IMG/VR virus record: IMGVR_UViG_3300025133_009393 | DNA: 64,000 nt | Strand: one strand, 5' to 3' | From: a virus | In this document: piece by piece, positions 34,801 to 60,491 of the stretch | Layout: each line of letters starts with the position of its first letter | Position numbering within the stretch: the stretch's first letter is position 1 | Translations under genes and position numbers: made by a program | Notes under the pieces: generated by a model | Seen by the model: only the letters and a program-made list of their open reading frames with translations | Told to the model about the DNA's origin: nothing | The model's database searches: none

Positions 34801-35102
34801 TATTTTTCCTTAAAAAATACTTCTGAATTTATATTTTTATCGTCTATAAAAAGATCGTATGCCGGCTTACCTAGTTTTAGCTCATGGTATTTTACACCCC
34901 ATTCACTAAATTGTTTTTCAGTAACTTCTCTCCAATCTAGGCCGGTACCTGTCCCTCTCGCGGTCCAATAAACAATTGTATTTCCATTATCGTACAATTC
35001 ATTGATTTTGTTAATATGTTTTTGCATTGGCTTTGCAAGAGAATAATCTCTACTTTCGGGGGTGATACATATTGTTTCATCTATATCTACATATATAATC
35101 AT
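34800..35102 (-). CDS. Small HAD-superfamily phosphatase (capsule-biosynthesis type)
   Basis: YVDIDETIC (DxD), WTARG, GKP...FIDDK. Confidence 0.85.
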   Translation of the reverse strand: MIIYVDIDETICITPESRDYSLAKPMQKHINKINELYDNGNTIVYWTARGTGTGLDWREVTEKQFSEWGVKYHELKLGKPAYDLFIDDKNINSEVFFKEK

Positions 35103-35106
35103 TATT

Positions 35107-35973
35107 TTACCTTATTACTGAATATAGCCAGCGACCACATTGTGGATCGTCCAGCTGTTTATCGGGATCGTTTAAATAAACAATCTCAATATTATTCTCC
35201 TGTAAGTGTGTGTGGAGTTGATACTCTACAGCATACTTTTTTGATTCGGGACCATGGTCATATTTTTCCATAGGTGGATAAGCATCTTCTTTTTCATTTA
35301 AAGAGCAATATATATCCATAACGGATGGGCATCCAAAAGCAAAGCCATCAAATAAGTATCTATCCATAAACCGATTTTCCGCAGGGGGAAGCCAGCCGCC
35401 AAAAAGAAATATTTTGTTGTCTATGCTGCCGTATTGTCTGATTGTTCGGGCTACCAATTCTTCGAAATCTATACCAATATTCAGCGTATAATCGTACCTA
35501 CTACGTATAATTAGATCATATTCAAAGCCGCCATCTTTGGCATATTGACGTGCCAATTGATTGCTTCTGCTCATCTTGTGAAGTTGCCTTTTTTTTAACC
35601 ACTGCCATTTTGTTATTTTTTCAACTTCATTGTTGTCCTCGTCGATATCTTCATCTTCAATGTATAGTTTCTTCAGCCTATCTCCGCATATATCATTTAT
35701 TCTATCAGTTATTATTCGATCATCAACATTGTAAATTATACCGTACGTATTGAACATCTTCATCCAGCCAATTCCACCAGGAAGATATTCCTTTACTACT
35801 CCATTTAACGGCGGCAAATTTACATTCGAAGCAACTCCTTTTTTTTGAGTAACTGCATTTGATGTGTAAGCAAAAACGTCAACATCGTTAAATGCCATGA
35901 GAGCTAGCTGATGATTTGCATGTGCATCTGCAAAGCGATTAATCTGTCCGGAATAACATAAAGCGATTTTCAT
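35107..35973 (-). CDS. Putative glycan-locus protein, possibly glycosyltransferase-like
   Basis: MKIALCYSGQ...DVF...YDLIIRSRYD...DGFAFG pattern seen in phage/viral glycan clusters; family not assigned with certainty. Confidence 0.5.
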   Translation of the reverse strand: MKIALCYSGQINRFADAHANHQLALMAFNDVDVFAYTSNAVTQKKGVASNVNLPPLNGVVKEYLPGGIGWMKMFNTYGIIYNVDDRIITDRINDICGDRLKKLYIEDEDIDEDNNEVEKITKWQWLKKRQLHKMSRSNQLARQYAKDGGFEYDLIIRSRYDYTLNIGIDFEELVARTIRQYGSIDNKIFLFGGWLPPAENRFMDRYLFDGFAFGCPSVMDIYCSLNEKEDAYPPMEKYDHGPESKKYAVEYQLHTHLQENNIEIVYLNDPDKQLDDPQCGRWLYSVIR

Positions 35974-36662
35974 TCTTTTTTTTCGTTTAAAAATTTATAC
36001 ATAGCTTCGCACAAATCAAATTGCCACTCGTAATCGATGTCGAACACTTCTTCTTCTGGAACGGGAGTCAATTTAATATCTCCTTTTTTACGAAAATCGC
36101 CCATCCAGATCCCTTTGCCAACTTTATCTAGTCTCGCTGCATACAAACAATGTGCAGCCTCATTGATAACTTTGGTAGTCCTTGTATTCATACAATCCTC
36201 GGTTAGAGGTGTTAAACACTCTTCCTCGTCGTTCCAAAAATAATTCTTTTTTTGTATAACTCCGAACATACCATCTGAGTCTGAGTTGATATACTGTTCA
36301 ACAAAATTATCAATAGTTTCGATCTTAATCAGAGGACAGCATGCACTGACAAGTATTGCGTATTTAAAAGGTAGCTTATCCCACCACTCATATAGCTCTG
36401 TCAGTTTTGGATTGTCTGCTTCAGCAGACTCCTTGCTTCTGTGGTAAATATTAACACCATGTTTTCTTCCTATCTCCAACAGCTCTTCTTCGTATACAGA
36501 AAGATAAAAATTCTCTTTTGGTATAATCTTAGAATTTAAAATCTTTTCAACGCAAATATCTGTTATGGTCGTGCCCGCAAAAGGCCTTGTCATTTTTCCA
36601 GGTGTCCTCTTAGAAGAAAGTCTAGCCTGTACAATCACACACACATCTTTTATATCTTTCAT
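35970..36662 (-). CDS. neuA: Acylneuraminate (nonulosonate) cytidylyltransferase, CTP_transf_3 family
   Basis: QARLSSKRTPGKMTRPFAG, CCPL and FDIDYEWQF match the CMP-Neu5Ac synthetase motifs. Confidence 0.85.
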   Translation of the reverse strand: MKDIKDVCVIVQARLSSKRTPGKMTRPFAGTTITDICVEKILNSKIIPKENFYLSVYEEELLEIGRKHGVNIYHRSKESAEADNPKLTELYEWWDKLPFKYAILVSACCPLIKIETIDNFVEQYINSDSDGMFGVIQKKNYFWNDEEECLTPLTEDCMNTRTTKVINEAAHCLYAARLDKVGKGIWMGDFRKKGDIKLTPVPEEEVFDIDYEWQFDLCEAMYKFLNEKKE

Positions 36663-37019
36663 TTAGTCCCCCTTTATAATCCTGTATGAGTCTTTATCAA
36701 AATGCTGAGTTGAGAATTCAAATAGTTCTGTGTCTTCTAGAGCCAACATTTGATGTCGCAAGCCCCTATACACATGAAAATTGTCTCCTTTGTTCAAAAT
36801 AATTTCTGCCGCGGCTTCAATATCATCTTCATCGGAATATTTTACAAGCATCTTTCCAGACTGAATGTAAAAAACCTCGTCTTTTAATTTATGATAATGC
36901 CAAGAACATCTTTTGTCTTTTGCAAAGTAAAGTAGTTTACCACAGTATTCCTCGCAATTTATAATCCATTTTTCAAATCCCCATCCTTTGGGGACAAATT
37001 TTATTTCTGGTTGTAACAT
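36663..37019 (-). CDS. Cupin-domain protein (sugar isomerase-like)
   Basis: KGWGFE...CSWHYHKLKDEVFYIQSG...H...EFST cupin motifs. Confidence 0.8.
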   Translation of the reverse strand: MLQPEIKFVPKGWGFEKWIINCEEYCGKLLYFAKDKRCSWHYHKLKDEVFYIQSGKMLVKYSDEDDIEAAAEIILNKGDNFHVYRGLRHQMLALEDTELFEFSTQHFDKDSYRIIKGD

Positions 37020-37020
37020 T

Positions 37021-37755
37021 TTATAATCCTTTTGTTAGCCATCCGCCATCAACGTATATGTCTTGTCCAGTTATATAATCAGAAGCATTCGAGGCTAGAA
37101 ATATTGCAATTCCAGCCAAGTCAGACGGATTGCCCCATCTTTTTAAAAAAGTCTTTTCTTTTCTTTCTTCATATGTTTTTGGGTTTGACCAGCTTTTTTT
37201 AGTCATCTCTGTTAACATATACCCCGGGCCAATATTGTTAACTCTTATATTATATTTTCCCAGATCACAAGCTAATGATTTGGTCAGTTGCTTGAGGCCG
37301 CCCTTCATCGCAACATATGCTGGATTATCCGGAAAAGCCATTTCTGCATTCAAGCTAGTAATATTAATAATTGATCCGCCACGATTTTTCATTTTTGTAG
37401 CCAATCTTCTCGATATCAAATAGGGCGCCTTTAAATTGACTTGGTATGTTTTTTCCCAATCTTCGTCTTTATAATCAAAGATATTATTTCCATATGTTAC
37501 GCCGGCGTTATTGACTAAAATATCAACATTTTCATTTTCTGCTTCAATTATGCTTAACGCCATATCGATATCTTTCTCATCAGACAAATCACATCTTATG
37601 TAATTCAATTCTGAATTCTCTAATATATCTAAATTATAAACTTTGGCGCCGGCTAAAGAAAGTCCACTAGCGATTGCCTGGCCATTTCCTTGAGAAGCGC
37701 CAGTTACGACTGCAACCTTCCCTTCCAGCGAAAAGAGATCTTTAATAGTTTTCAT
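37021..37755 (-). CDS. SDR-family oxidoreductase
   Basis: VTGASQGNG, LVNNAG, YVAMK (YxxxK), ITGQDIYVDGG. Confidence 0.93.
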   Translation of the reverse strand: MKTIKDLFSLEGKVAVVTGASQGNGQAIASGLSLAGAKVYNLDILENSELNYIRCDLSDEKDIDMALSIIEAENENVDILVNNAGVTYGNNIFDYKDEDWEKTYQVNLKAPYLISRRLATKMKNRGGSIINITSLNAEMAFPDNPAYVAMKGGLKQLTKSLACDLGKYNIRVNNIGPGYMLTEMTKKSWSNPKTYEERKEKTFLKRWGNPSDLAGIAIFLASNASDYITGQDIYVDGGWLTKGL

Positions 37756-38453
37756 CTTATTAAAACCCTATTAAGTCGTATTTCTTCAGATATCATATTG
37801 GAATCATACGATATAATCTTTACTATAAAGTCAGCAATTTCTTCCGGGCGCATAAAAGTATCATAATCTTGATTTCTAACTTGCAAGCCCATTGAAGTCT
37901 GTATTGAGCCAGGAGAAACTGAATATACACGTATTCCCTCTTCTTTCAACTCATCATAGAGTGAACGTGTGAGACCCAAAAGAGCATGTTTCGAAGCGCA
38001 ATATATTGACGTTTCTTTGAATCCGGCGTATGAGGAAGAGGAGCAAATATTTACTATCCTTCCCCACTTCCTTTCCTTCATTCTTTCGCTAAGAATTTTA
38101 CACAAAACGAATGGAGCACGTACATTAACATTAAAGCATTTATTATACATCGCAATAGAAGATTCTTCTAGAGTCGAAACAGGAAAAATACCAGCACAAT
38201 TAATTAAAATATCAATATCATTTACTGATAGGCATTTTTGCGCAGTATTCTTTATTTCTTCCACATTCTCTAGATTACAAACACTATAACCTAAAGAACT
38301 CTCTCCTAGACTTTCTTGTAATTCTAAGAGTTTTTTTTCATCTCTTCCTATTGTATATATGTTACAGCCGACAGAGGCTAAAAAAATAGAGATCTCTCTT
38401 CCCAGTCCGCGAGTGGCGCCGGTTACAAAAGCGTTTTTTCCATTTAAAAGCAT
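37752..38453 (-). CDS. SDR-family oxidoreductase
   Basis: VTGATRGLG, LINCAG, YCASK, VSPG. Confidence 0.93.
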   Translation of the reverse strand: MLLNGKNAFVTGATRGLGREISIFLASVGCNIYTIGRDEKKLLELQESLGESSLGYSVCNLENVEEIKNTAQKCLSVNDIDILINCAGIFPVSTLEESSIAMYNKCFNVNVRAPFVLCKILSERMKERKWGRIVNICSSSSYAGFKETSIYCASKHALLGLTRSLYDELKEEGIRVYSVSPGSIQTSMGLQVRNQDYDTFMRPEEIADFIVKIISYDSNMISEEIRLNRVLIR

Positions 38454-38456
38454 GGG

Positions 38457-39332
38457 CTATAGCTTTGCTTTCTGGTGCCAATAAGGATTTGCTAGCTTCT
38501 TACGAGAGGCTGCTTCTACTTCTGTCATTCTTTTGACACCATCGCCCATTGATTTTGCGGCAATATTCAAATAGCGTACCAACGTCTTAAAGCCTTGAGG
38601 CTCCAAAGATGCTGCCTGATCAGATCCGTACATTGTTCTATCTAGAGTAATATGTCTCTCGATACTAGTGGCGCCCAGAATAAAAGCCGCTACAGAAATT
38701 TGCAGGCCTCGCTCATGGCCACTATACCCAACATCGCAATTATATGCTTCTCTTAAAGCACTAATCATTTTAAGATTTGCCTCCTCATCTTCCATTGGGT
38801 AAGACGAGTTACAATGCATCAGCTCAAACGGACATTTATGATTTTCAAAAATCTTTACTGCGTTCTGTATTTCATCCAAAGTACTCATGCCAGTTGAAAT
38901 AAAAGTGTATTTTCCTTCTTCTGCAACCTTATGTAACATTGGATCTAGAGTTAGCATAGCCGATGCCACTTTGTTATATTTTAAATCATACTTGCGCAAG
39001 AATTCTTGACTTTTCAAATCCCATGCCGAGGCGAACCATTCAATATTTACCTTCTTACAAAATGCATCAATCTGATCATACTCTGCTTCACCAAATTCTA
39101 AACCATTTTTCTGTTCTCTATTTGTCTTTCCAAATGGACTTTCTCTAAATCGATCTAGATCTTCCGGAGTGTACACATCTTCTACTGTTCGTTTTTGAAA
39201 TTTTACAGCGTCGAAGCCGGCTTTTTTCGCCTCTACGATAAGCTTTTTAGCTGTTTTCATATCTCCATTGTGATTGATACCAATTTCTGCAATCAAAAAT
39301 GGTTTCTTTTCGTTTTTACCCGTTTCAAACAT
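38457..39332 (-). CDS. neuB: N-acetylneuraminate synthase family protein (short form, no SAF domain), copy 1
   Basis: IAEIGINHNG, KFQKR, ISTGMS, HCNSSYP, GYSGHE, IERHITLDR...GSDQ. Confidence 0.93.
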   Translation of the reverse strand: MFETGKNEKKPFLIAEIGINHNGDMKTAKKLIVEAKKAGFDAVKFQKRTVEDVYTPEDLDRFRESPFGKTNREQKNGLEFGEAEYDQIDAFCKKVNIEWFASAWDLKSQEFLRKYDLKYNKVASAMLTLDPMLHKVAEEGKYTFISTGMSTLDEIQNAVKIFENHKCPFELMHCNSSYPMEDEEANLKMISALREAYNCDVGYSGHERGLQISVAAFILGATSIERHITLDRTMYGSDQAASLEPQGFKTLVRYLNIAAKSMGDGVKRMTEVEAASRKKLANPYWHQKAKL

Positions 39333-39368
39333 AGTTCACCTCTCTTAAAATGTTGTTTTACGTGCCTT

Positions 39369-39397
39369 ACTATAACATATTTTACTATTTTTGTAAA
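39369..39397 (-). promoter_or_regulatory. Sigma70-type promoter upstream of neuB copy 1
   Basis: TTTACA (39397-39392) - 17 nt - TATAGT (39374-39369) with TG extension, in a 78-nt intergenic gap; GAGAGGTGA RBS follows. Confidence 0.65.
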
Positions 39398-39410
39398 GCC
39401 ACAACAGCTG

Positions 39411-40367
39411 TTATGCAAACTTCTGCAGCTTTTTATATTTCTCTTCTAAGGGGAAATTCTGCCTAGATATATCAGTAGACATATTCGAAGGATGTCCTTC
39501 TCCTAGGTTTTGAAATTTTACATTCTTTCCTATATCGTTAAGGAGATAGTCCCATAGAAATACGTAACCTCTCTTATAAACTCCATAATTACCCTTTCCA
39601 GTGCGTACTTTCTTTCCCTGAAAAGCATGCTTGACCACTTCTCCGTTTTCGTCTCCCTTCTTAAGACCGTCCATTCCTACGATATGTACTTCTTTGGCGC
39701 CAAGCAAAACAGCCATACACAACAACCTAGGAACTGTACCTATCTTACAACGAAATCTAGTGTGTGCGTATATAGCCCTATCCGGATACTTGTTCTTGAT
39801 AGATTGGAAATAATCTTCTTTCTTAAATTTATCTTCAATGCATATGATTGTTGAATTATTCTCTAGGTAATTGTGAAACTTTTCGTTATTTTCACTAAAA
39901 TCTGTCTCACCGGTAAAAAAGGCAAACGAAACATCTATATTCTTCATCTTTTCATTGTGATAAAAATGATTGCAAGAAAAAACATAGTCATACTCTTCGG
40001 GATCCCAATCACACTGTATCGCGGTGGGGCCTGCGCCGACGACCAAAATTTTACTATCTTTGAATTTTTCCAATTGAGGAATATTCTGGAAGATGGCCTC
40101 TTCGCTGCACAACATATCCTCTCCAAAAGCGTCATGATATAACTCTTTAACGAAAGATAAACCATATTGTTGATTATTGAGAAAATCTTCCTTGCTGCTC
40201 ATAAATGAACTATACAAACTAGGTGTGTTTGTCCAATTTTGAGCGGAAGAGAAACGTACTCCCTCTTCCAGATCTAGCCAGTGCGTTGCGTATTTGCCTT
40301 CTTTTACCTTTATTCGAGGCATTTTCTTGCAATTATTCCAAATAATCTCGTATTCATTATCAATCAT
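39411..40367 (-). CDS. Putative nonulosonate transferase, GT42 (CstII)/Maf-like
   Basis: ILVVGAGPT...YVFSCNHFY...AVLLGAKEVHIVGMDG parallels CstII IIAGNGPS...VFRCNQFY...AIALGYKEIYLSGIDF. Confidence 0.65.
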   Translation of the reverse strand: MIDNEYEIIWNNCKKMPRIKVKEGKYATHWLDLEEGVRFSSAQNWTNTPSLYSSFMSSKEDFLNNQQYGLSFVKELYHDAFGEDMLCSEEAIFQNIPQLEKFKDSKILVVGAGPTAIQCDWDPEEYDYVFSCNHFYHNEKMKNIDVSFAFFTGETDFSENNEKFHNYLENNSTIICIEDKFKKEDYFQSIKNKYPDRAIYAHTRFRCKIGTVPRLLCMAVLLGAKEVHIVGMDGLKKGDENGEVVKHAFQGKKVRTGKGNYGVYKRGYVFLWDYLLNDIGKNVKFQNLGEGHPSNMSTDISRQNFPLEEKYKKLQKFA

Positions 40368-41016
40368 TTATTTTCTCCACTTCTGCTAATTTAATTAATA
40401 GTTTTTTGCCATCAGATGTTTTGATATAAGCGTTAGGGTATGGATCTGATAACATTCGTATCTTGTTATAAAGATAACCTGACGGCTTACTCGCAAGTTC
40501 ATCTAGTGTTATTTCGCTTTGTTTTGGAGTGCGCCTAGGGTAATAAGTTGCTTTAGTTTCGTCTTGCTTGGCCGGCCTAGGCATTTCGTTTAAAATTTCT
40601 TTTGTCATCTCTGTGCCTTTTTCCACTATTCTCATAAATATTTCTTCCAAAGAGCCTCTTAACGACAAGTCTTTCTGCACTAGAATATCGCCAGCATCAT
40701 ACTCTTCATTTATTATAAATAAAGTAATTTTAGTATCTAATACTCCTCTTATAATTTGATTTTGCAAAGGAGAGCCACCTCTAAATCTAGGAAGATCAGA
40801 AGGGTGTAGCATAATTGATTTAAAATTTTTATGTATCTCCTCGTCAATTTGCCAACTCCATCCATAAAAAAATATAATATCTGGTTGAAAATCGAAGATT
40901 TTATTATTGTTAAAGCTCTCTTTGTTCAAAATTAAAAAGTCACATTCTAGATCTTTTATTAAATTTTGATATATTTCTATAGCCCACTTTCGATAGCCAA
41001 CGCAAGCTAGCTTCAC
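40360..41016 (-). CDS. N10-formyl-THF-dependent formyltransferase (sugar N-formyltransferase-like)
   Basis: LHPSDLPRFRGGSPL, YDAGDI, DPYPNAY. GTG start overlapping the upstream TGA (the ORF track extends it to 41022). Confidence 0.85.
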   Translation of the reverse strand: MKLACVGYRKWAIEIYQNLIKDLECDFLILNKESFNNNKIFDFQPDIIFFYGWSWQIDEEIHKNFKSIMLHPSDLPRFRGGSPLQNQIIRGVLDTKITLFIINEEYDAGDILVQKDLSLRGSLEEIFMRIVEKGTEMTKEILNEMPRPAKQDETKATYYPRRTPKQSEITLDELASKPSGYLYNKIRMLSDPYPNAYIKTSDGKKLLIKLAEVEKIND

Positions 41017-41687
41017 TTGCACATCCTTACAATCTGAAACGCTTCTGCATATTTATAACCACTTTGCATACCTCGCGACATAGACAAAGTTTTAATTCCC
41101 TCATCGCTCCTGGGGAATGGCCAAGGGCGACATTCAGTGAAATATTCTTTTATGGCCAGACACTTATTTTGCACATCTTCTTCGGACAAATTATAAAACA
41201 TATTTGGACAAAACGAGTCTTTAAAGCCCCACTCAGTACTACTCAACACCTCATAGCATAGTACTCTTTTTACAGTCGACATGCCAGGACGAGTTGCTAT
41301 CATTGTAGCATCATGCACTTTTCTATGATCAGTGTTGCTATCACTGCTCCAGTGAGTAAAGACAGTATCCGGTTTGAAATCTTGGATCTCTTTTTCGATC
41401 ATTTTGTTTATTGTTAGCTGCGGAACTTGATCTAATCTTCCACATGGCAAGTTGTTAAAAACAATATTAGATACTCTCACCCTTGATAATGCTCGACAAG
41501 CAGAATCATTACGAATTTGTATTTCTTTAGCGTATTTTTCTTGATCACTTGAATCAAAACGACATGTCGTGCCCTCGGCTATAAAAACAACCTTAAAATC
41601 GATTGATTTTGAAAACCTACTCATTATGCCGCCGCAGCCAAGAAGCTCATCGTCTGGGTGTGCAGCTATTACCAATGCTTTTTTCAT
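41013..41687 (-). CDS. PIG-L/LmbE-family N-deacetylase
   Basis: IAAHPDDELLGCGG, VFTH...DH, YE...S, AEAF. Start at ATG 41687 after GAGGAG. Confidence 0.9.
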   Translation of the reverse strand: MKKALVIAAHPDDELLGCGGIMSRFSKSIDFKVVFIAEGTTCRFDSSDQEKYAKEIQIRNDSACRALSRVRVSNIVFNNLPCGRLDQVPQLTINKMIEKEIQDFKPDTVFTHWSSDSNTDHRKVHDATMIATRPGMSTVKRVLCYEVLSSTEWGFKDSFCPNMFYNLSEEDVQNKCLAIKEYFTECRPWPFPRSDEGIKTLSMSRGMQSGYKYAEAFQIVRMCK

Positions 41688-42210
41688 AGTCTCCTCTAAG
41701 TAAAGATAAAATATGAGAATTATAGTACTTCCCATTATAATAATAATGCTGTCTCAAAGTAGCATCAATCGCAAAACCAGCTTTTTTGAAAAATTCCAGC
41801 TTCTTGTTGTCAATCTCATATATCTCAGCCCAAATCTTATTCATATTCATTATATGAAAACCGCGTTTAAGCATTAGTTCTAAAGCGCGTGGTGCATATT
41901 TTTCATCTATCCATTGAGCGTCTTGTCCGATATAAAAATGCAAATCACAGTGCTTGTTTAGCCAGTCTATATAAGTAAAACCAGCAACACCAACTGGATC
42001 TTTGCTTTCAACGAAGTTATCATAAATCATAAACATTTCAAATCGATCATCGTTAATCATTGAATCATACCACTTTTCTTTTTGAGAAAGTGAGAATTCT
42101 CTATATTCTCTAAAGTATCTTCTTAAATTTTCATTGTTTCTCCAGCGCTGTAATAGTTTTAAATCATCTTTCTCAATAGCCCTGATTCCAACAACTTCGT
42201 TGGCTATCAT
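41647..42210 (-). CDS. GNAT/RimJ-family N-acetyltransferase (PseH-like)
   Basis: IRAIEKDDL...WRN...YIG...KIWAEIYE...FFKKAGF...LRQH. Confidence 0.8.
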   Translation of the reverse strand: MIANEVVGIRAIEKDDLKLLQRWRNNENLRRYFREYREFSLSQKEKWYDSMINDDRFEMFMIYDNFVESKDPVGVAGFTYIDWLNKHCDLHFYIGQDAQWIDEKYAPRALELMLKRGFHIMNMNKIWAEIYEIDNKKLEFFKKAGFAIDATLRQHYYYNGKYYNSHILSLLRGDYEKSIGNSCTPRR

Positions 42211-43271
42211 CAAACATGCTCCTTTCTAAAATAATCTCCACTTTTAATCAACTTGTTAATTTTCTTTCCGATAATTTCATCAACTTTATTAATTGATATC
42301 GCATCCTGCGGGCTTGGTCTTTGAAACTGAATTGATTCTCGATCGATAATTTCGCCCGGGCGCATATCTCTGGTGGTTCTTATTGATCTTCTTTGCAAGA
42401 TGACAGTCTCTTCCTCGTTTGGTTGTACCTCTTTCGTACCATGACCCATAGATAACTCTAATAATCTAGCATCATCGACCATTGCACGCCAAGTTTTAGG
42501 ATCCATAGAAAAAGGATGATCAGGCCCGGGACGGCTAGTATCATCAGTAAAGTGTTTTTCAATAACTCTTGCGCCTAGGGCAATTGCTCCCAAAGCCGTA
42601 ACATGACCCAAAGTATGATCACTAAGTCCTAAAATTAAATCCGGATACATAGCCTGATATGTTTTAAGTACATTTAAATTAATGTACTTAAAATTTTCTT
42701 TTTTTGCAGTGTAGTTTGTATTACACTGCATCAATACAATCTGGCTATTATGAGGTCGGATAACTTCGACGGCTCTTTGGACTTCTCCAATATTCCCAGC
42801 GCCGGTTGCAAGAAGCACCGGCTTATTTGTCTCTGCGACGCTCTGTAACATTGCTTCCCATCCAAGGTCACCGCTTCCAATCTTGAAAGCAGGAACAAAT
42901 TCATTTAAATGTTGTACCATATCTAAATCGTACGGTGTTGAAAAAAAAGTTATTTGTAATTTTTTACAATGCTCTCTTAATTCTTGCGTCCAATTCAAAG
43001 GTACTTCTGCGTCTTTGTAGACTTCAAAAATCGATTTTTTCCAAGACGATTGATGGCTAAATTTGCCACCTAAATTTTTAAAACCATAGTCGCTTACATA
43101 TTTTGTAACATCATGGTGCTGGAATTTTACAGCGTTTGCGCCGGCTTGTTTTGCAAGCTCAATTAGTTTCTTTGCTCTTTCTAAGTTTCCATCATGATTG
43201 GCTGCAATATCAGCAATAAAATAAGTCTTAGAATTTTTTGAAATTTTACAGTTATCTATCTTTATAATCAT
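42210..43271 (-). CDS. neuB: N-acetylneuraminate synthase family protein with C-terminal SAF/AFP-like domain (PseI/LegI/SpsE-like), copy 2
   Basis: IADIAANHDG, KFQ, FSTPYD, KIGSGD, QCNTNY, GLSDHT, IEKHFT, GPDH, then RRSI...RP SAF tail. Confidence 0.93.
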   Translation of the reverse strand: MIIKIDNCKISKNSKTYFIADIAANHDGNLERAKKLIELAKQAGANAVKFQHHDVTKYVSDYGFKNLGGKFSHQSSWKKSIFEVYKDAEVPLNWTQELREHCKKLQITFFSTPYDLDMVQHLNEFVPAFKIGSGDLGWEAMLQSVAETNKPVLLATGAGNIGEVQRAVEVIRPHNSQIVLMQCNTNYTAKKENFKYINLNVLKTYQAMYPDLILGLSDHTLGHVTALGAIALGARVIEKHFTDDTSRPGPDHPFSMDPKTWRAMVDDARLLELSMGHGTKEVQPNEEETVILQRRSIRTTRDMRPGEIIDRESIQFQRPSPQDAISINKVDEIIGKKINKLIKSGDYFRKEHV

Positions 43272-44001
43272 TTTTTATTATCTCCATGCCTTCCAAAAAA
43301 GATACCGTCTTGTCCGGGTTTTCTAAAACAAGGTCTTGATATTCTATTTCAACAGGATTTATCAACTGTTGATCTAATCCAAGGATCTTTGCTAGTTCTG
43401 TTAAGAATTGATATTTGCTTATAGTTCTGTCACTTGCTATAGTATAAACCCCGCTTATTTTATTGTCAAGTAATTCTTTAATACATTCCGAAAGTTGATC
43501 AACATGTACAGGATTAAAAAAACTATTTTCATATCCGTTTATTTGCTTTCCATTTTTTAAACTGGTAAAAGCCCACTCAGCCAGATTTGAGGAACCATAT
43601 ATATTTGTTCGAATTACTAAATTATCTTCGTCCAGCAAGGCTATATTTTCACCTACTTTTTTAGTTTCAAAATAAACATTTTTTTTGTAAATTGATTTTT
43701 TCCATACTGGAATTGTCGAAATATACACAAGCTTTTTACAATGCTTACTGAGCAAATCGTTTATATAGGCATGTAAGATTTTACATTTTTCTCTATTTTC
43801 TTGGCAATACTTTAAATTTGTAAAAGCTGCACAATGTATTATTACATCATAATATTTATCTACGAACCATTTATTAGTTTCTTGAATATTAGTTAAATCT
43901 AAATCTTGTTTTCCATTCAACATATCCGCCGCCGGAAATATGTTAGATAATGATGAACCTAACATGCCGGTGGCGCCGGTTATAAGAATTTTATCATTCA
44001 T
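43252..44001 (-). CDS. RmlD-like NDP-4-keto-6-deoxysugar reductase
   Basis: ITGATGMLG, IIHCAA, YIST, YFETK (YxxxK), IRTNIYG, SKYQF. Confidence 0.8.
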   Translation of the reverse strand: MNDKILITGATGMLGSSLSNIFPAADMLNGKQDLDLTNIQETNKWFVDKYYDVIIHCAAFTNLKYCQENREKCKILHAYINDLLSKHCKKLVYISTIPVWKKSIYKKNVYFETKKVGENIALLDEDNLVIRTNIYGSSNLAEWAFTSLKNGKQINGYENSFFNPVHVDQLSECIKELLDNKISGVYTIASDRTISKYQFLTELAKILGLDQQLINPVEIEYQDLVLENPDKTVSFLEGMEIIKNDYKDR

Positions 44002-44003
44002 TT

Positions 44004-44702
44004 TTATTTTGTAACTTTAACAAAATGTTCAAAACCATTTGATGCATCTGGCGCATCATCGATATGTATAGTTCCTTTATCTTGATACAATTCATTAAAA
44101 TTATGTATATATCTCATACGGGTATTTGGCTTCTTTGAAAAAGACTCACCATGTTCTTCAGCATGTACAATACCTAAATTCGTATGATCATATATGCTAT
44201 TTACTATATTAGTTATATATTTTGTGTCTAGAAATCCTTTGGTAATCGCGATGACCTGTCCCGTGGCCGCTACCATGGTAGACCGATCTGATTCATCCCA
44301 ATTTGGAATATGTATTAACACTCCAGCTGTAAAAATTACATCAAATTTTCTACCTTTTAATTTACTTGATAAATCATAAATCGAGCCATGTATAGTTTCC
44401 ATAGCATCTAATTTAGATTTTGCATATTCTAATGCAGGCTTGTTAATATCATATCCTGTTAATTCAACAGATGAATCTAATTTGTGAATTTCTCGTAAAT
44501 TATATCCTCCTAGGCATCCTATTTCTAAAATCGACCTTGGATTAAGCTCAAGTATAAATTCTGCTAGTTTTGCTCTTCTTTCTGTTTTAAAATTTTCATA
44601 ACCAGAATGATCAAATTCGGACGTGCTAGCCCAATGTTTTTCTAATTCTTTAACTATCCAGGGTGTAGAAAGCGTGCGAGGAGGGTTGTTAGACTGTTTC
44701 AT
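44004..44702 (-). CDS. Class I SAM-dependent methyltransferase (pseudaminic-acid-locus-associated type)
   Basis: SILEIGCLGGYNL, GYDIN, FDVIFTAGVLIHI. Confidence 0.8.
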   Translation of the reverse strand: MKQSNNPPRTLSTPWIVKELEKHWASTSEFDHSGYENFKTERRAKLAEFILELNPRSILEIGCLGGYNLREIHKLDSSVELTGYDINKPALEYAKSKLDAMETIHGSIYDLSSKLKGRKFDVIFTAGVLIHIPNWDESDRSTMVAATGQVIAITKGFLDTKYITNIVNSIYDHTNLGIVHAEEHGESFSKKPNTRMRYIHNFNELYQDKGTIHIDDAPDASNGFEHFVKVTK

Positions 44703-44730
44703 TTTTTTCTCTCATTTTTATGTTTAATGT

Positions 44731-44782
44731 TATTAACATTTTAATCCTTTTTCTATTAACATTTTAATCCTTTTTCTATTAA
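44731..44782. repeat. Perfect 23-bp tandem duplication of the 3' end of the pseB-like gene
   Basis: TATTAACATTTTAATCCTTTTTC at 44731-44753 and 44754-44776, plus a partial third copy (TATTAA). Confidence 0.95.
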
Positions 44783-45739
44783 TTCTGCTAATTCGTTTAT
44801 ATCTTCTTTAACCCATAGGCCTGAATTAAACTCGGGGCCATGGTACTTGTTCCAATCCTGATATGTTTTTTTTGTATATTGAGGTCTAATTTGTAATAAA
44901 TTTATATTAGGTACTTCATATGTAAAATCTAATTCAGTTTTTGCTAACATATCCTCATGTAATTTTTCTCCTGGCCGGAGGCCTACGATGTTTATTTTTG
45001 ACTTAATAGTTGATATTTTTTCTAAGGCTTGTATACACAAAGGAAGTGTGTAAGAGTCAATCTGAGGCACAAAAACTTCACCTCCTATAGAATTTTGTAA
45101 TGCTCCTAAAACACAGTCGACAGCATCTTCTAATGTAAATAAAAATCTAGTCATTTCCACTGATGTTACTTGTAGCACTTCTCCCTTTTTCATCATATCT
45201 AACCATAAAGGAATAAAAGATCCTCGCGATGCAATTACATTTCCATATCTAACTGATGAAAATATAGTTGTATTGGAATTATAATCGTAATTTGTAAATA
45301 TTCTTTCTGCAATAAATTTACTCGACCCATAAACATTAACAGGCTGGCATGCTTTATCTGTCGAAACTAAAATACATTTTTTAATATTATTTTCTAATGC
45401 TGCTCTTGCAACATTTTCAGACCCTAATATATTTGTTTTTACACACTCATCAGGATGAATTTCCATATCATCGATACGTTTAAGTGCTGCAGCATGTATA
45501 ATATAATCTGGCTTATGGCGTTTTAATGTAACATTAAATTTATCATAATCTCTAATATCGCCAATTACACACTTTACTACAGGATCTCTACCAAAAATTA
45601 AAGCTTGCTTGCCCTCGTCGCGACTAAAAACAATTATTTCCCATTTCGGAAATTGCTCTTTAATCTTCTTGATCAAAGCTTTACCGAGCGATCCAGTGCC
45701 GCCGGTAATCATAATCTTCTTACTTTCTATCCTTTGCAT
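44756..45739 (-). CDS. pseB: UDP-GlcNAc 4,6-dehydratase, PseB/FlaA1/FnlA family
   Basis: ITGGTGSLG, FSRDEGKQ, GDIRD, HAAALK, STDKA, YGSSK, VRYGNVIASRGS, MTRF, RPGEKLHE. Inverting versus retaining activity cannot be read from the sequence. Confidence 0.85.
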   Translation of the reverse strand: MQRIESKKIMITGGTGSLGKALIKKIKEQFPKWEIIVFSRDEGKQALIFGRDPVVKCVIGDIRDYDKFNVTLKRHKPDYIIHAAALKRIDDMEIHPDECVKTNILGSENVARAALENNIKKCILVSTDKACQPVNVYGSSKFIAERIFTNYDYNSNTTIFSSVRYGNVIASRGSFIPLWLDMMKKGEVLQVTSVEMTRFLFTLEDAVDCVLGALQNSIGGEVFVPQIDSYTLPLCIQALEKISTIKSKINIVGLRPGEKLHEDMLAKTELDFTYEVPNINLLQIRPQYTKKTYQDWNKYHGPEFNSGLWVKEDINELAELIEKGLKC

Positions 45740-46622
45740 TTTGTTTTATCCCTCTGTAAGCATTGTATTTGCTATCCTCGCCTAAATTATTATACTCTAC
45801 ATTTAAATTTAGGCTAAACAAGTGGTGCCAAAAAACAAAAGCTTGTTGTTCAAAGCGCGCCGTATCATAAAAAGGCGGTGGATTTTTCTTGTCTTCAAAA
45901 GTATGAACTTTCATGTCATCACTCAAGAAACCATCCAATCCGACATAATCGATTTTTTTAGCTCCCAATAGCGCTGCTAAAAGTATAGCCCTTGATGTAT
46001 AACCTAAGCGCGAAAAGTACCTAGTCAAGAATAAAAAAACATCTGCTCCGTGATTTTTAAATTGATTCAAAGGATCTATGCCTCTGCGATCTGAATGTTC
46101 AAAGCCAATCAATGGATTAAATCTTTCGACATACTCAGCCAATGCTGAATCTTTTAAATCAACTTGGTGTCCCAGCAAGAGCAGATCTGCTTTTATATCC
46201 TTAAATCTTTCAGTTTTGTAAAAATAATTGCAAGAAAAAACATGATCATATTCACATACTTTTTCTGCATCTAGCTCATTGGTGCTGGGACCACCGCCGA
46301 GGACCAAAACCGAAGATCCAAGAAACTTTGCAAAGCTCTTGTTTCCGGTAATAACAACTTCTGGCGATAAAATTAAATTTTGATAATCGTCGTATTTATT
46401 TTTAGGGCCAAAGCTTTGATTAAAAAAATCTAATGCATAGCTTTCCATCCATTCTTCCGGAGGACAATTAAAATTGAACCAGCCGCCTTCATACTGTTGG
46501 TTTCTATTATTATATCCGAACGTCTGATCAGTTTTTGTATCTAGCCATTCATTTTTATTCTTTGCTGCAACAAAGCGTTTGCTCCAATCATCTTGCAGCG
46601 TAGGTAATAATTCTTGATCCAC
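45720..46622 (-). CDS. Putative nonulosonate transferase, GT42/Maf-like (paralog of 39411-40367)
   Basis: VLVLGGGPS...HVFSCNYFY...AALLGAKKIDYVGLDGF...HTF...NLGE. Confidence 0.65.
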   Translation of the reverse strand: MDQELLPTLQDDWSKRFVAAKNKNEWLDTKTDQTFGYNNRNQQYEGGWFNFNCPPEEWMESYALDFFNQSFGPKNKYDDYQNLILSPEVVITGNKSFAKFLGSSVLVLGGGPSTNELDAEKVCEYDHVFSCNYFYKTERFKDIKADLLLLGHQVDLKDSALAEYVERFNPLIGFEHSDRRGIDPLNQFKNHGADVFLFLTRYFSRLGYTSRAILLAALLGAKKIDYVGLDGFLSDDMKVHTFEDKKNPPPFYDTARFEQQAFVFWHHLFSLNLNVEYNNLGEDSKYNAYRGIKQNAKDRK

Positions 46623-47340
46623 TGTACACTCTCTTGCTATAAAATTTAGTAAAGCCTTTGGTTGCTAAATACTGCTCTAAAAGTTGAATATTGCATGACC
46701 AATAAGTTGTAAAGTCTCCATCGACTTCATCGCCGGGATAATATATCATAACCGGTTCAGCTGAACCATCTTTCCTGGCTGGCAAAGGCCACTCTCTTCT
46801 CCAAGAATAATACTCAGCATTAATTGTCTCTATAACCACCGTTTCTTTAGTCACAGAGAGAACTTTGTCCAAAATAGATAGTGGGTTAGGCAAATGATAG
46901 AAAACGCCTAAAAACAACGCTACGTCGTGCTCTCCGACGGTCTCTGGAGATATATCCTCCAGGGGCACTATACTATCCTGTACTTTGGAGTTTAAAATCT
47001 CTCTGGCCAAAAGAAATCCTTCTTGCTGATTCCAAATATCATCTTGGGTTTTTTCATCTAATTCTTGATTAGTCCATCGATACGGATCGACAGCTAAAAC
47101 ACTAGTTGCGCCACACTTTTCAGCGTGAAACGAAAAACAACCATCGCATGCTCCGATATCGATAACACTCTTGCCTTCAAAAAGATCTGGTGTCATTTCC
47201 CACTCTTTTAAGTCCAAAAAGGTATTTTTCTTTCCAGGGGTTATTTGTCCATTTCCCAAATCAATTTGCTGGCGCCACTTGATCTTGTCGACTCGCGCAT
47301 CATGATCCGGATTTGTATATTTAAAGTTAAAGTCTGCCAT
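46588..47340 (-). CDS. Class I SAM-dependent methyltransferase (CmoB/DUF1698-like)
   Basis: GKSVIDIGACDGCFSF, LAVD, LFLGVFYHLPNP, VIET. Confidence 0.8.
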   Translation of the reverse strand: MADFNFKYTNPDHDARVDKIKWRQQIDLGNGQITPGKKNTFLDLKEWEMTPDLFEGKSVIDIGACDGCFSFHAEKCGATSVLAVDPYRWTNQELDEKTQDDIWNQQEGFLLAREILNSKVQDSIVPLEDISPETVGEHDVALFLGVFYHLPNPLSILDKVLSVTKETVVIETINAEYYSWRREWPLPARKDGSAEPVMIYYPGDEVDGDFTTYWSCNIQLLEQYLATKGFTKFYSKRVYSGSRIITYAAR

Positions 47341-47341
47341 T

Positions 47342-48169
47342 TTAATTTCCTCTTAGTTTTTTACGTATTGGTTTTTCGCCTTCAGTCACTCGTTTCTCTC
47401 CGTCACCATACGCCAATTCTAGTTCTCTAACGCCTTTTACTAGCTTAATCAAGCCTTGTGGTTCAACAGAAGACATATGATCTGATCCCCATGTCGTACG
47501 ATCAAGGGTTATGTGTCTCTCAATGATAGAGGCGCCTAAATATACCGCAGCGACCGAAGTGCCAAGTCTAAATTCATGTCCACTGTAGCCAACCTCACAA
47601 TTGTATCGCTCTTTTAACGTCTTGATACAGCTAAGATTTAATTCTTCTAGAGGCGCCGGATACGTCGAGTTGCAATGAAGCATCGCAAAATCAGTGCCCT
47701 GCAGTATTTCAACAGCGGCGTCTATTTCTTCCAATGTGCTCATGCCGGTAGATATGATAACTCTTTTGCCGGTTGATGCAGCTGCTTTGAGAAGTTCGTG
47801 ATTTGTTAGCATTGCTGACGGCATTTTGATATATGGTACATCGTACGTCACCAAAAAGTTAAGACTATCTAAATCCCATGGCGAGGCTGTCCAAGCAATT
47901 CCTTTTTCCTTACAATAACGATCGATTTCATCATAATCGTGCCGGCCAAATTCTACCTTATATTTATAATCCAAATAAGTCATTCGACCCCATGGAGTAT
48001 CTCTCATTACTTTCTTCTGATGTTCAGGCACACAGACGTCTGGATTTCTTTTTTGAAATTTAACAGAATCACAACCAGCAACTGCTGCAATGTCTATCAA
48101 ACGCTTGGCAACAGCCAAACTTCCATTATGATTGATGCCTATTTCTGCTATAATATGTGTCTTTTTCAT
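47342..48169 (-). CDS. neuB: N-acetylneuraminate synthase family protein (short form), copy 3
   Basis: IAEIGINHNG, KFQKR, ISTGMS, HCNSTYP, GYSGHE, IERHITLDR...GSDH. Confidence 0.93.
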   Translation of the reverse strand: MKKTHIIAEIGINHNGSLAVAKRLIDIAAVAGCDSVKFQKRNPDVCVPEHQKKVMRDTPWGRMTYLDYKYKVEFGRHDYDEIDRYCKEKGIAWTASPWDLDSLNFLVTYDVPYIKMPSAMLTNHELLKAAASTGKRVIISTGMSTLEEIDAAVEILQGTDFAMLHCNSTYPAPLEELNLSCIKTLKERYNCEVGYSGHEFRLGTSVAAVYLGASIIERHITLDRTTWGSDHMSSVEPQGLIKLVKGVRELELAYGDGEKRVTEGEKPIRKKLRGN

Positions 48170-50232
48170 TATTTCTCCAAATATTTTCTAGGTACATTTT
48201 CGTGTACATGTGAGCCCGGGGCGGCGATATGTAAGTTAATGTTCTTTTCTTTTAGCCACTCATAAAAACTCTTGCTGGCTTCTATGTTCGTTTCGATTTC
48301 TTCATCTCGCATCGGATCTGATCTTCTAACCACATTCGGTACGTTTTCTTCTAAATCATAAAAATGTATTGATTTTGTCTCCCCGGGAGTTTCAAAATCC
48401 CAACCTATAGTATGCACGTTAGAAATACCTAAATGCTCAACTAAATAAAGACCAATTTCATACATCATTCCAGGGCCCCAAAGCCGATCTGTTGTTTTCT
48501 CTAAAACATAATCATCAAAATTTCTAGTAACTGCCAAGCTATGATTAAAGTCTTTGTTTGAGTTGACTATTGGTAAAAATATATCATATTCTTGTTGCTT
48601 TGTCCAGACGTGATTTACCATTACTTCTTCCGGTTCGCCGGCTGTGGCAATAATAACCGGTTGACTTTCTTTATAATCATAGACTTTAAAGTTGTTACAA
48701 TTGAAAAGGTGAAAATCAACTATATCTGGTACATAATCATACGCTTGTTTAATGGCTATTACTAATTTATCTTTCAACTTCTCTCTTAAGAATTCAGGTG
48801 AATAATTTTTGAGGGAAGGACCACAAGATAAAATATAGCAATCTTGACCCTTAAAGCTATCTTTCAATATATCAACCTTCTTTTTTGCATCAGATTGCGA
48901 ATTGATCTTAGATTTTAAAAAGCTAGTTTTAGAATTAGCGCTAGCTTCGATGTCTGATGTGTTGCTTTCTCCATCACCTAAAGTCTTGGCGGCGTTCATA
49001 ACAATTTTAGCCAATCCTTGGCCAATAGTTTTCTGATCCAGCTTAAGACTTTGCATGTGTTCCCAACCTATCCAGCCTTTTTCTTCCAAAGAATCTTGTC
49101 TCCACATTTCATATGCCCTTCTTAATTCTTTTCGAGCGCTTAAAATATGCGGTTCATATAAATTCATATCACAATGATATTCCGGACGAGTTGTATATGG
49201 TTTCCAATGGCCATCAACAAAAAAGGCCGCATTTTGATGTGCGAAATCCATATAGCCTGTGGCGCCGGGGACAAGAACTGGAGTGCGATGCATCAAAGCC
49301 TCCGCAACGGTTAAGCCATAGCCTTCTGCTCTTGTCAAAAGCGCAAATAAATCTGCCCTATTATACAGCCAAGATAATTGATTAAATGGTAAAGTATCTG
49401 TCAATAACATAATATTGGCATTTGACTGTTTTCCAGTTGGTGTAAAAATTTCTGATTTTACCTTCTTAATTTCACCAGCAATCATATTTGTCTGCTGCTG
49501 CATAGGATATCTATCAACAAAATCAGGCATTAAGTTTATATATGTCTTGATAATCAACACTGCGTCTTCATTATTGGCGAATTCCATTGCAAAAGATGAA
49601 ACCAACTTTTCAAAACCCTTTCGCATGGTCCACTGAGACATAGAAAATACGACAAATTTATCTTTTAATACCTCTTCCAAGTTATCGATTGGCCGAGGAT
49701 CAACAATATTGTTGTTCAAAACATAAGGTAAGAGATGACAATCAACGTCGATATCTCTTAAACTGTGTGAATAAACATTTTTATTCCATTCGCACGGCAC
49801 TATTACTGATTCCGTGTTGAGCTGCTTATATACCGTTTTCCAACTATCTGGAAGGGCATCCGCTTCCCAAACAGATATATTGATATTTTTTGTCGAATTG
49901 TGTATAAGTTTAAGGCCGGCTGCCCATACAGGATCTTTTTTAGATTGAAGAAAATACACCATGGGTGCGGGCATTTGCCAGACAGCTAAATATTCATTTT
50001 TGCAAAAGACATCGATCTCTTCTTCTGACTTAAACTCGTACTTCTCAATCAGTCTCTTTTCTTCTTTGGTAATACGATTTGTTTTATCCAGCTCGACAGG
50101 AATCGTATGAATCTTAAAATTAAAAGATCCGGGATTGTCTGTCAAAAAGTCATCAATCGCTTTAAGATAACCTCTAGCAGCCGAAGCATAGCCGCTAGTA
50201 TCGCGATACTGGCTTATAAATACAATATTCAC
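48169..50232 (-). CDS. Fusion of a GT4 glycosyltransferase and a C-terminal Maf/DUF115/GT42-like domain
   Basis: SGYASAAR, WEAD, RKG and EGYGLTVAEA (GT4 E-x7-E). C-terminal CYILSCGPSL...VIAIKQ...HLGISNVHTIGWD...HFY. Confidence 0.8.
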   Translation of the reverse strand: MNIVFISQYRDTSGYASAARGYLKAIDDFLTDNPGSFNFKIHTIPVELDKTNRITKEEKRLIEKYEFKSEEEIDVFCKNEYLAVWQMPAPMVYFLQSKKDPVWAAGLKLIHNSTKNINISVWEADALPDSWKTVYKQLNTESVIVPCEWNKNVYSHSLRDIDVDCHLLPYVLNNNIVDPRPIDNLEEVLKDKFVVFSMSQWTMRKGFEKLVSSFAMEFANNEDAVLIIKTYINLMPDFVDRYPMQQQTNMIAGEIKKVKSEIFTPTGKQSNANIMLLTDTLPFNQLSWLYNRADLFALLTRAEGYGLTVAEALMHRTPVLVPGATGYMDFAHQNAAFFVDGHWKPYTTRPEYHCDMNLYEPHILSARKELRRAYEMWRQDSLEEKGWIGWEHMQSLKLDQKTIGQGLAKIVMNAAKTLGDGESNTSDIEASANSKTSFLKSKINSQSDAKKKVDILKDSFKGQDCYILSCGPSLKNYSPEFLREKLKDKLVIAIKQAYDYVPDIVDFHLFNCNNFKVYDYKESQPVIIATAGEPEEVMVNHVWTKQQEYDIFLPIVNSNKDFNHSLAVTRNFDDYVLEKTTDRLWGPGMMYEIGLYLVEHLGISNVHTIGWDFETPGETKSIHFYDLEENVPNVVRRSDPMRDEEIETNIEASKSFYEWLKEKNINLHIAAPGSHVHENVPRKYLEK

Positions 50233-50233
50233 C

Positions 50234-52806: not shown

Positions 52807-52817
52807 ATTTTCCTCTT

Positions 52818-60434: not shown

Positions 60435-60456
60435 ATATTTTAAAGATCTGTTCTTA

Positions 60457-60484
60457 ATTATACGTACAAAAAATATAAAGTCAA
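60457..60484 (-). promoter_or_regulatory. Sigma70-type promoter of the tmRNA
   Basis: TTGACT (60484-60479) - 16 nt - TATAAT (60462-60457), 22 nt upstream of the mature tmRNA 5' end. Confidence 0.8.
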
Positions 60485-60491
60485 GTATTTT

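Follow-up and report, generated by a model that had tools for sequence, protein, structure and literature searches.

Nonulosonic acids influence immune recognition, the assembly of flagella and the adsorption of phages. To our knowledge, all textbook bacterial routes to their 9-deoxy members run through a C4 aminotransferase. Among the closest described routes is the cytidine monophosphate (CMP)-pseudaminic acid pathway of Campylobacter jejuni and Helicobacter pylori (PseB, PseC, PseH, PseG, PseI and PseF). We analyzed a 64,000-nucleotide stretch of viral DNA (IMG/VR record IMGVR_UViG_3300025133_009393; hereafter the window), which belongs to a marine T4-like phage, and in it a seven-gene set at positions 40360-45739. 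This locus shares with the CMP-pseudaminic pathway the PseB-type tyrosine of the dehydratase, a GNAT enzyme at the position of PseH, a NeuB synthase with a SAF domain and a CTP_transf_3 cytidylyltransferase; however, it has neither PseC nor PseG, an RmlD-type reductase is fixed beside the synthase, the shared enzymes all score under the equivalog cut-offs, and the synthase (NeuB1) belongs to a clade of its own. Gene content suggests that the locus is the phage version of a widespread, uncharacterized nonulosonic acid cassette in which C4 reduction would replace amination, yielding a 7-hydroxy, 9-deoxy nonulosonate that is possibly N-formylated; we put the probability of this reading at roughly 0.45. 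The sugar would probably carry one nitrogen instead of two. The genes of the set, followed by two neighbors, are listed below (aa, amino acids).

44756-45739, minus strand: PseB-type uridine diphosphate (UDP)-N-acetylglucosamine 4,6-dehydratase, presumed inverting, 327 aa; Polysacc_synt_2 1e-81, TIGR03589 (PseB) 279 bits
44004-44702, minus strand: S-adenosylmethionine-dependent methyltransferase (class I), 232 aa; Methyltransf_12/25/11 ~1e-9
43252-44001, minus strand: RmlD-like short form of a short-chain dehydrogenase/reductase (SDR), 249 aa, proposed C4 ketoreductase; RmlD_sub_bind 5e-23
42210-43271, minus strand: NeuB-family synthase with SAF domain (NeuB1), 353 aa; NeuB 8e-72, SAF 4e-8
41647-42213, minus strand: GNAT acyltransferase, 188 aa; Acetyltransf_3 9e-15
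41013-41735, minus strand: PIG-L/LmbE-type de-N-acetylase; PIG-L 2e-21
40360-41022, minus strand: formyltransferase-like protein, 220 aa; Formyl_trans_N 5e-12
39411-40367, minus strand: 318-aa protein with a Maf/MptE-like lead; no Pfam or NCBIfam match
35970-36662, minus strand: CTP_transf_3 cytidylyltransferase, 230 aa; CTP_transf_3 2e-12, weak PseF match of 37.5 bits

Other described systems share parts of this scheme. In Vibrio cholerae O37, the RmlD homologue WbvR reduces the 4-keto product of a PseB/FnlA-type enzyme. The WbvB/WbvR/WbvD route to UDP-N-acetyl-L-rhamnosamine (UDP-L-RhaNAc) and UDP-N-acetyl-L-quinovosamine (UDP-L-QuiNAc), as well as the FnlA/CapE plus FnlB/CapF routes, resemble the cassette in that the keto group at C4 is reduced after the dehydratase step; in contrast to the cassette, they end at a UDP-6-deoxy-L-N-acetylhexosamine (UDP-6-deoxy-L-HexNAc), use no NeuB or cytidylyltransferase, and have a Met-type dehydratase where the cassette has Tyr. 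The lipopolysaccharide (LPS) of Fusobacterium nucleatum 25586 contains both 6-deoxy-L-N-acetylaltrosamine (6-deoxy-L-AltNAc) and a 3,5,9-trideoxy-nonulosonate. A trideoxy counterpart of fusaminic acid exists in nature, and this 3,5,9-trideoxy sugar of F. nucleatum LPS has the constitution predicted here: its only nitrogen is at C5, its C9 end is deoxy and the group on the nitrogen is not acetyl (PMC7371886). Fusaminic acid has gluco stereochemistry, which is not what a simple route through PseB and an L-altro sugar predicts; the product had been called fusaminic-acid-like in a first reading of the letters alone (the original prediction), and this likeness holds for the constitution (3,5,9-trideoxy-5-amino) but not for the stereochemistry. 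For Ca. Kuenenia stuttgartiensis, the SugarBase preprint links the deacetylase and formyltransferase inside a legionaminic-type cluster to CMP-sugars that carry formyl groups or free amines (10.64898/2026.04.20.719630); unlike the phage cassette, this cluster is bacterial and includes homologues of LegB, LegC and LegG, and hence an aminotransferase and a hydrolyzing epimerase. Our literature searches (fusaminic acid genes, trideoxy-ulosonates, 9-deoxy nonulosonates on flagellin and phage NeuB) returned no paper giving the biosynthetic genes of fusaminic acid and no description of the cassette or of a role for its reductase. When the RmlD-linked, aminotransferase-free cassette is defined by synteny, the window fits it, with PseB-like, RmlD-like, NeuB1-clade and CTP_transf_3 genes all co-oriented.

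The seven genes of 40360-45739 lie in one orientation, with starts and stops that overlap or nearly touch, and the Pfam and NCBIfam identities agree with the set as it had originally been placed. All seven enzymes score too low for the curated cut-offs of their nearest named equivalogs (PseB, RmlD, NeuB/PseI, PseH or Fmt); they are family members rather than orthologues of characterized enzymes. The dehydratase falls short of the 408-bit PseB equivalog cut-off and scores 224 bits on the FnlA model. Among solved structures it is closest to H. pylori FlaA1/PseB (2GN4, 219 bits), and its motif STDKA...VNVYGSSK carries the PseB-type Tyr (Tyr-xxx-Lys) at the position of Met in CapE/FnlA; because of this Tyr and the FlaA1/PseB match, an inverting PseB-type product is our best guess. 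A CapE/FnlA-type dehydratase on a route to N-acetyl-L-fucosamine (L-FucNAc) was rejected on the same two grounds. The methyltransferase, which gave a weak match to the pseudaminic-acid-associated methylase model TIGR03587 (47 bits; cut-off 112), is accessory: its gene has no copy in most related phage loci, and the methyltransferases of the Clostridium and Acetobacterium islands described below are unrelated to it.

The RmlD-like protein is not RmlD proper by equivalog score (TIGR01214, 84 bits; cut-off 224). Its motifs GATGMLG (GxxGxxG), S95/T96 and Y110-xxx-K114 line up with the catalytic positions of RmlD enzymes of known structure, and the NAD(P) motif and the Ser/Thr-Tyr-Lys set are invariant in 15 relatives; since these residues are kept, the protein looks like a working reductase. 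Against the 300 aa of the bacterial form, the phage forms are trimmed to about 240-250 aa, and in phages and bacteria alike the gene lies directly upstream of a NeuB1-clade gene. Scans of the window's open reading frames (ORFs) with Pfam and NCBIfam found no RmlA, RmlB or RmlC, and bacterial loci have a separate 283-aa reductase beside genes of 181 aa and 288 aa, a trio read as rmlD, rmlC and rmlA by size and order only. A partnership with the GDP-mannose 4,6-dehydratase encoded at 52818-53804 was also rejected, as the bacterial cassettes pair the reductase with NeuB in the absence of such a dehydratase. The bacterial reductase family comprised 758 clusters at E <= 1e-30, annotated, where named, only as RmlD-family or SDR proteins; the 120 best relatives of this reductase included no Fusobacterium homologue.

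NeuB1 scores 286 bits on NeuB_NnaB (cut-off 400) and 248 on PseI (cut-off 340), and thus lies under both equivalog cut-offs; among solved structures it matched Neisseria meningitidis NeuB with 173 bits and PseI 8H2C with 159 bits. In a phylogenetic tree it fell in a supported clade (99/97) whose members are all RmlD-linked synthases, of phage, bacterial and, in one case, archaeal origin, and where the window copy grouped with those of other phages and of a Balneolaceae metagenome-assembled genome (MAG). Outside this clade lay the DegT-linked NeuB of one related phage locus (L015) and the SAF-less phage paralogues. The GNAT scored 61 bits on TIGR03585 (PseH; cut-off 93) and 57 on the SpeG model; its nearest solved protein was SpeG with 60 bits, PseH 4XPK reaching only 20. 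The cassette GNATs of 23 bacterial loci fall with it into a single orthologous group, in which the phage copies have a one-residue deletion in the loop that binds the coenzyme A pyrophosphate. In the PIG-L protein the metal motifs AHPDD(E) and D-x-N-x-DH (NTDH) are kept in all relatives; its real start is probably M17, at about 41687, and gene calls on other contigs give 224 aa. The formyltransferase-like protein scored 80 bits on fmt and 74 on ArnA, with a Pfam match that covers profile positions 72-155 only; the motif HPS(P/D)LPxxRGGSP, with the His of the catalytic triad, and its Asp, in DxGD, are kept (here HPSDLP and DAGD). Its gene always adjoins the PIG-L gene in phage relatives. The only NeuA/PseF-type cytidylyltransferase of the window, at 35970-36662, lies outside 40360-45739 and scores 37.5 bits on PseF (cut-off 206). 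In most phage relatives the cytidylyltransferase directly follows the formyltransferase or the GNAT gene; here it is split from the formyltransferase by an insertion of a second NeuB (NeuB2), two SDRs and a cupin. We propose that it provides the CMP-activating step of the cassette.

We searched the window for an aminotransferase and for an enzyme that would release UDP. The Pfam and NCBIfam scans covered ORFs of at least 100 aa and smaller called genes in the 14.3-64 kb part of the window, leaving out the giant ORFs 178-14346 and 18145-28638 and a 140-aa plus-strand ORF at 60340-60762; in this range they found no DegT or class III aminotransferase and no PseG/GT28 or Epimerase_2 (NeuC) protein. 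Six-frame tblastn of the whole 64-kb window with five DegT, two class III and two PseG probes drawn from related loci returned only noise (E > 0.3). Both searches agree with the earlier observation that the locus, of which both ends are in the window, contains no recognizable aminotransferase or nucleotide-releasing hydrolase. PseG (TIGR03590, GT28) likewise had no match in five related phage records. Three candidates for a hidden PseG were rejected: the protein at 35107-35973 has capsule-transferase-like or DUF7796 neighbors, that at 39411-40367 has MptE/Maf-like neighbors, and a 275-aa gene between PseB and DegT in L015 encodes a PhyH-like protein.

Phage relatives, collected by IMG/VR searches with NeuB1 and with the reductase alignment, showed that about 20 distinct loci keep the order PseB, RmlD-like, NeuB1, GNAT, PIG-L, formyltransferase and CTP_transf_3. 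The RmlD-like gene adjoins NeuB1 in 10 of 11 clustered phage loci. The genes for PIG-L and the formyltransferase are missing in three loci (L016, L020 and L115), and the pair is therefore regarded as an add-on. Among the roughly 20 contigs, DegT was present within the fetched flanks only in L015, which combines one PseB with two branches, and each branch has a separate NeuB with a SAF domain. The first branch contains RmlD-like, NeuB1 and GNAT genes, and the second (9578-15297, together with PseB) a PhyH-like dioxygenase, DegT, a different NeuB with SAF domain, formyltransferase, PIG-L and a more PseH-like GNAT (87 bits on PseH); this DegT-bearing module has no PseG. Such a layout is expected if reductase and aminotransferase are alternative fates of the same 4-keto sugar, with a dedicated synthase for either product. 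In family searches of phage records, one DegT each was found on the L015 contig and in a complete 52-kb phage, and none in a 121-kb relative (67% complete) or three other phage records; the five records searched for PseG and NeuC, including the 121-kb relative, had neither.

Among cellular organisms, searching species genomes with the reductase alignment yielded 80 loci, of which 28 were analyzed together with an Acetobacterium locus. The core of PseB, CMP-transferase, RmlD-like enzyme, NeuB and GNAT was found in at least 30 bacterial and archaeal loci (these 29 clustered loci plus that of Clostridium tetani), from Bacteroidota, Clostridia, Pseudomonadota, Verrucomicrobiota, Omnitrophota, Saganbacteria, Ignavibacteriota, Balneolota and one Woesearchaeote. 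In 29 of the 29 loci, which had been picked for carrying both genes, the reductase immediately precedes a NeuB that shares 46-66% identity with NeuB1, with one small gene between them in a single case; the stop and start codons of the two often overlap. An orthologous GNAT follows NeuB in 23 loci, and PseB and the cytidylyltransferase are in the same block in most, the latter often between PseB and the RmlD-like gene. The five-gene unit is compact and has no GT4 genes as partners. No aminotransferase is present inside the cassette in 20 of the 29 loci. Among 28 cassette genomes, PseC exceeded its cut-off in one and PseG in two, both of them Clostridium and both with PseG adjoining the cassette. 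Flagellin glycosylation islands house the cassette in Acetobacterium carbinolicum, C. carboxidivorans P7 and C. tetani, where it stands beside a Maf/PseD-type transferase, with no DegT within 10 kb of it; in C. carboxidivorans a true PseG adjoins it. Maf-like genes also lie near the window cassette, as in the pseudaminic setting. The closest bacterial version was found in the Balneolaceae MAG (L054:6879-14018), whose NeuB, PIG-L and formyltransferase are 66%, 50% and 51% identical to those of the window and which has a GT2 gene between NeuB and PIG-L; its grouping with the phage sequences hints at a gene donor or host lineage.

A second type of cassette (L065:4292-7223, L078:7186-9987 and similar loci) has three additions: an aldo/keto reductase, an SpsF-like cytidylyltransferase and, directly upstream of the RmlD-like gene, an aminotransferase that is of class III in some loci and a DegT in others. 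The aldo/keto reductase was present in 7 of the nine aminotransferase-bearing cassettes and in one locus without aminotransferase. By analogy with KdnA/KdnB of 8-amino-3,8-dideoxy-octulosonate (Kdo8N), this addition may exchange a hydroxyl for an amine later in the pathway.

In the pathway that we propose, the RmlD-like SDR would reduce the C4 keto group of the PseB product with NAD(P)H in place of PseC-type transamination, giving a UDP-6-deoxy-L-HexNAc of altro or ido configuration; this step is suggested by the intact catalytic residues, the fixed synteny and the missing aminotransferase. UDP would then be removed by an enzyme not identified in the window, which leaves a gap in the route. 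The NeuB1-clade synthase is predicted to condense the free sugar with phosphoenolpyruvate (PEP) to a 5-acylamino-3,5,9-trideoxy-non-2-ulosonate with a C7 hydroxyl, and the CTP_transf_3 enzyme would make the CMP donor. As phage add-ons, PIG-L would strip the N-acetyl group, the formyltransferase-like enzyme would re-acylate the amine, most likely with formyl, and the methyltransferase would add a methyl group. One possible role of the GNAT is O-acetylation of the newly formed C4/C7 hydroxyl, another is acylation of the freed amine, and nearby Maf-like proteins could transfer the sugar to a target on the phage or host surface. C4 reduction followed by PEP condensation is the most economical scheme, because PseB is the sole keto-generating enzyme of the compact cassette and an intact ketoreductase is fixed beside a dedicated synthase clade. 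The order PseB, RmlD-like, NeuB without an aminotransferase recurs in about 20 phage contigs and many bacteria, and is therefore not a local accident.

Several observations weigh against C4 reduction, and some of them favor an ordinary 5,7-diamino sugar (Pse-, Leg- or Fus-type), for which the aminotransferase and the UDP hydrolase would be supplied by the host, by another region of the phage or by another locus; the GNAT would then be a true PseH, and the RmlD-like enzyme would do something extra, such as resetting a stereocenter. We consider this alternative, the main rival, less probable than C4 reduction. GNATs, including PseH-like ones, normally acylate amines, and a GNAT that scores against PseH and SpeG belongs to the conserved core, in 23 of 29 bacterial and 11 of 11 clustered phage loci. 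A class III or DegT aminotransferase stands directly upstream of the RmlD-like gene in 7 of the 29 cassettes, and two more encode DegT beside NeuB; reductase and aminotransferase can therefore coexist. Other DegT enzymes, reaching about 127-333 bits on the PseC model, are encoded elsewhere in 27 of the 28 cassette genomes. One phage lineage (L009-L012 and L017) keeps PseB, NeuB1, GNAT, PIG-L, formyltransferase and the cytidylyltransferase and works without the reductase. No UDP-sugar hydrolase is encoded in the window, so that the pathway as written is incomplete and at least one step must be outsourced; a helper from the host could equally be PseC, and PseG is absent even from the DegT module of L015, so the phages outsource at least that step. 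The negative for aminotransferase and PseG covers the 64-kb window of a phage genome of about 175 kb, the other ~110 kb being outside the search. Throughout the formyltransferase-like subfamily, moreover, the catalytic Asn of Fmt/ArnA/PurN is Met (IMLHPS), and the acyl donor or mechanism may therefore differ from those of standard N-formyltransferases. Finally, a 2026 paper that makes no mention of a reductase accounts for the lack of PseC in a Clostridium flagellin island by proposing a trans-encoded PseC for C. beijerinckii, predicted to lie at a different locus (PMC13317340). The diamino alternative, however, leaves the ketoreductase without an obvious substrate other than the product of PseB, the sole keto-generating enzyme of the compact cassette. 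DegT exceeded the PseC cut-off in only 1 of the 28 genomes, the NeuB1 clade is separate from the DegT-linked NeuB of L015, and the reductase adjoins NeuB1 across several bacterial phyla, one archaeon and phages. A protein database search with the L015 DegT returned many marine relatives, none of the best 120 of which was on the 174,960-bp contig, the longest with the reductase, a weak negative. The original prediction is in part supported, by the PseB-type Tyr, the intact reductase motifs, the conserved order and the joint travel of PIG-L and formyltransferase; it is weakened by the phage lineage without reductase, and three points fit it poorly, namely the conserved PseH-like GNAT, the missing UDP-releasing enzyme and the joint occurrence of reductase and aminotransferase (9 of 29 cassettes encode the latter).

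Two further explanations give the RmlD-like enzyme another role. GH4 and GH109 glycosidases use NAD+-bound transient oxidation, elimination, water addition and re-reduction; if the RmlD-like SDR did the same with bound NAD+, it could replace PseG/NeuC by eliminating UDP and releasing a free sugar for NeuB. This would supply the sole step without an encoded enzyme, in cassettes that nearly always lack PseG and NeuC, and would suit a gene that is always immediately upstream of NeuB, even in aminotransferase-bearing cassettes. We nevertheless regard it as very improbable: it is purely chemical speculation, we know of no precedent in the RmlD family, the missing aminotransferase of the compact cassettes is left unexplained, and the RmlD-like gene occurs together with a true PseG in two Clostridium cassettes. 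Equally slim are the chances of a self-sufficient core that needs neither PseC nor PseG, in which the RmlD-like SDR would both set the C4 hydroxyl and free UDP by NAD-dependent transient oxidation and the GNAT would O-acetylate this hydroxyl, giving a 7-O-acetyl (in phages 5-N-formyl) mimic of pseudaminic acid with oxygen in place of nitrogen, which Maf-like enzymes would attach to the giant fibers or the host surface. Alternatively, PseB and the RmlD-like enzyme may only supply UDP-6-deoxy-L-HexNAc to neighboring GT4 enzymes, with NeuB1 acting on an unrelated substrate and two pathways lying side by side. PseB/FnlA-type enzymes with reductases make UDP-L-RhaNAc, UDP-L-QuiNAc or UDP-L-FucNAc elsewhere, three GT4 genes are upstream in the island, and a UDP hydrolase gene is lacking. 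We hold this to be the least probable of the explanations, since the bacterial five-gene unit is compact and without GT4, the cytidylyltransferase gene is often placed after PseB and before the RmlD-like gene, and the adjacency of RmlD-like and NeuB1 genes extends over 29 of 29 bacterial and archaeal loci (selected for both genes) and 10 of 11 phage loci.

If C4 reduction is correct, it would assign genes to the rare one-nitrogen 9-deoxy sugars, call for another annotation of "PseC-less" clusters, which are now called pseudaminic with PseC assumed elsewhere, and provide a new CMP-sugar for glycoengineering. Because the cassette is present in culturable C. tetani, C. carboxidivorans and Acetobacterium, the question is directly testable by mass spectrometry of flagellin. 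New here are its carriage by a marine T4-like phage family, the PIG-L/formyltransferase and methyltransferase add-ons, the two-branch L015 locus and the Clostridium flagellin-island examples. The location of the cassette in a variable island with two more NeuB genes and Maf-like genes, near baseplate and fiber genes, suggests that these phages synthesize sialic-acid-like sugars themselves, which may serve to decorate their virions or to alter the surface of the host.

The phage markers of the window include gp25 and gp6-like baseplate proteins, giant proteins of 4722 aa and 3497 aa, PhoH and a PD-(D/E)XK exonuclease, and the identical locus was found on marine metagenome contigs. Megablast against the INPHARED phages gave no match, an exact 50-mer had no hit in IMG/VR, and the 956-aa protein, used to extend past the end of the window, led only to a 5.8-kb contig that carries two unannotated genes. 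The seven genes are inside a 20-kb glycan island (about 34000-53804), both ends of which are in the window. The genes for the PD-(D/E)XK exonuclease and PhoH border it at one end; at the other are small conserved phage genes, together with giant fiber genes and the gene for a GDSL protein. These flanks are the same in phage relatives. Comparison with L006, L014, L016 and L113 showed that the site is fixed between the exonuclease and small genes (100-aa, Zn-ribbon and 250-aa); the gene content varies from phage to phage, and the island therefore behaves as a variable cassette site. In addition to the seven genes, it holds the cytidylyltransferase gene, the three GT4 genes, two SAF-less NeuB, two classical SDRs, a cupin, a TylF-type methyltransferase and Maf-like unknowns.

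The SAF-less NeuB paralogues (47342-48169, 275 aa; 38457-39332, 291 aa) each lie beside a Maf-like unknown, and with other phage copies they form a long-branched clade that was phage-only in the set used for the tree; their nearest solved relative is 6NCS, a 290-aa SAF-less synthase. The 318-aa protein at 39411-40367 had MptE-like neighbors with TM (template modeling) scores of 0.54-0.57 in a language-model and structure look-up and is paralogous to 45720-46622; it is a probable transferase rather than a pathway enzyme. The two classical SDRs (37021-38453), which are KduD- or gluconate-5-dehydrogenase-like, and the small cupin (36663-37019) belong with NeuB2 to the insertion between formyltransferase and cytidylyltransferase, a block that most relatives do not have; the SDRs and cupin look like a tailoring set that would oxidize, epimerize and reduce. 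At 52818-53804 the island encodes a true GDP-mannose 4,6-dehydratase (TIGR01472, 416 bits; cut-off 415), and no GDP-4-keto-6-deoxymannose reductase/epimerase was recognizable among the window ORFs scanned. Between a giant fiber gene and the island, 29708-32230 encodes an 840-aa protein with a GDSL/SGNH hydrolase domain, which could be a virion-borne sugar esterase. The baseplate and giant fiber genes lie a few kilobases past the island edge, where the giant ORFs 178-14346 (4722 aa) and 18145-28638 (3497 aa) flank the gp25 and gp6-like genes; these ORFs are candidate fibers and possible acceptors of the sugar.

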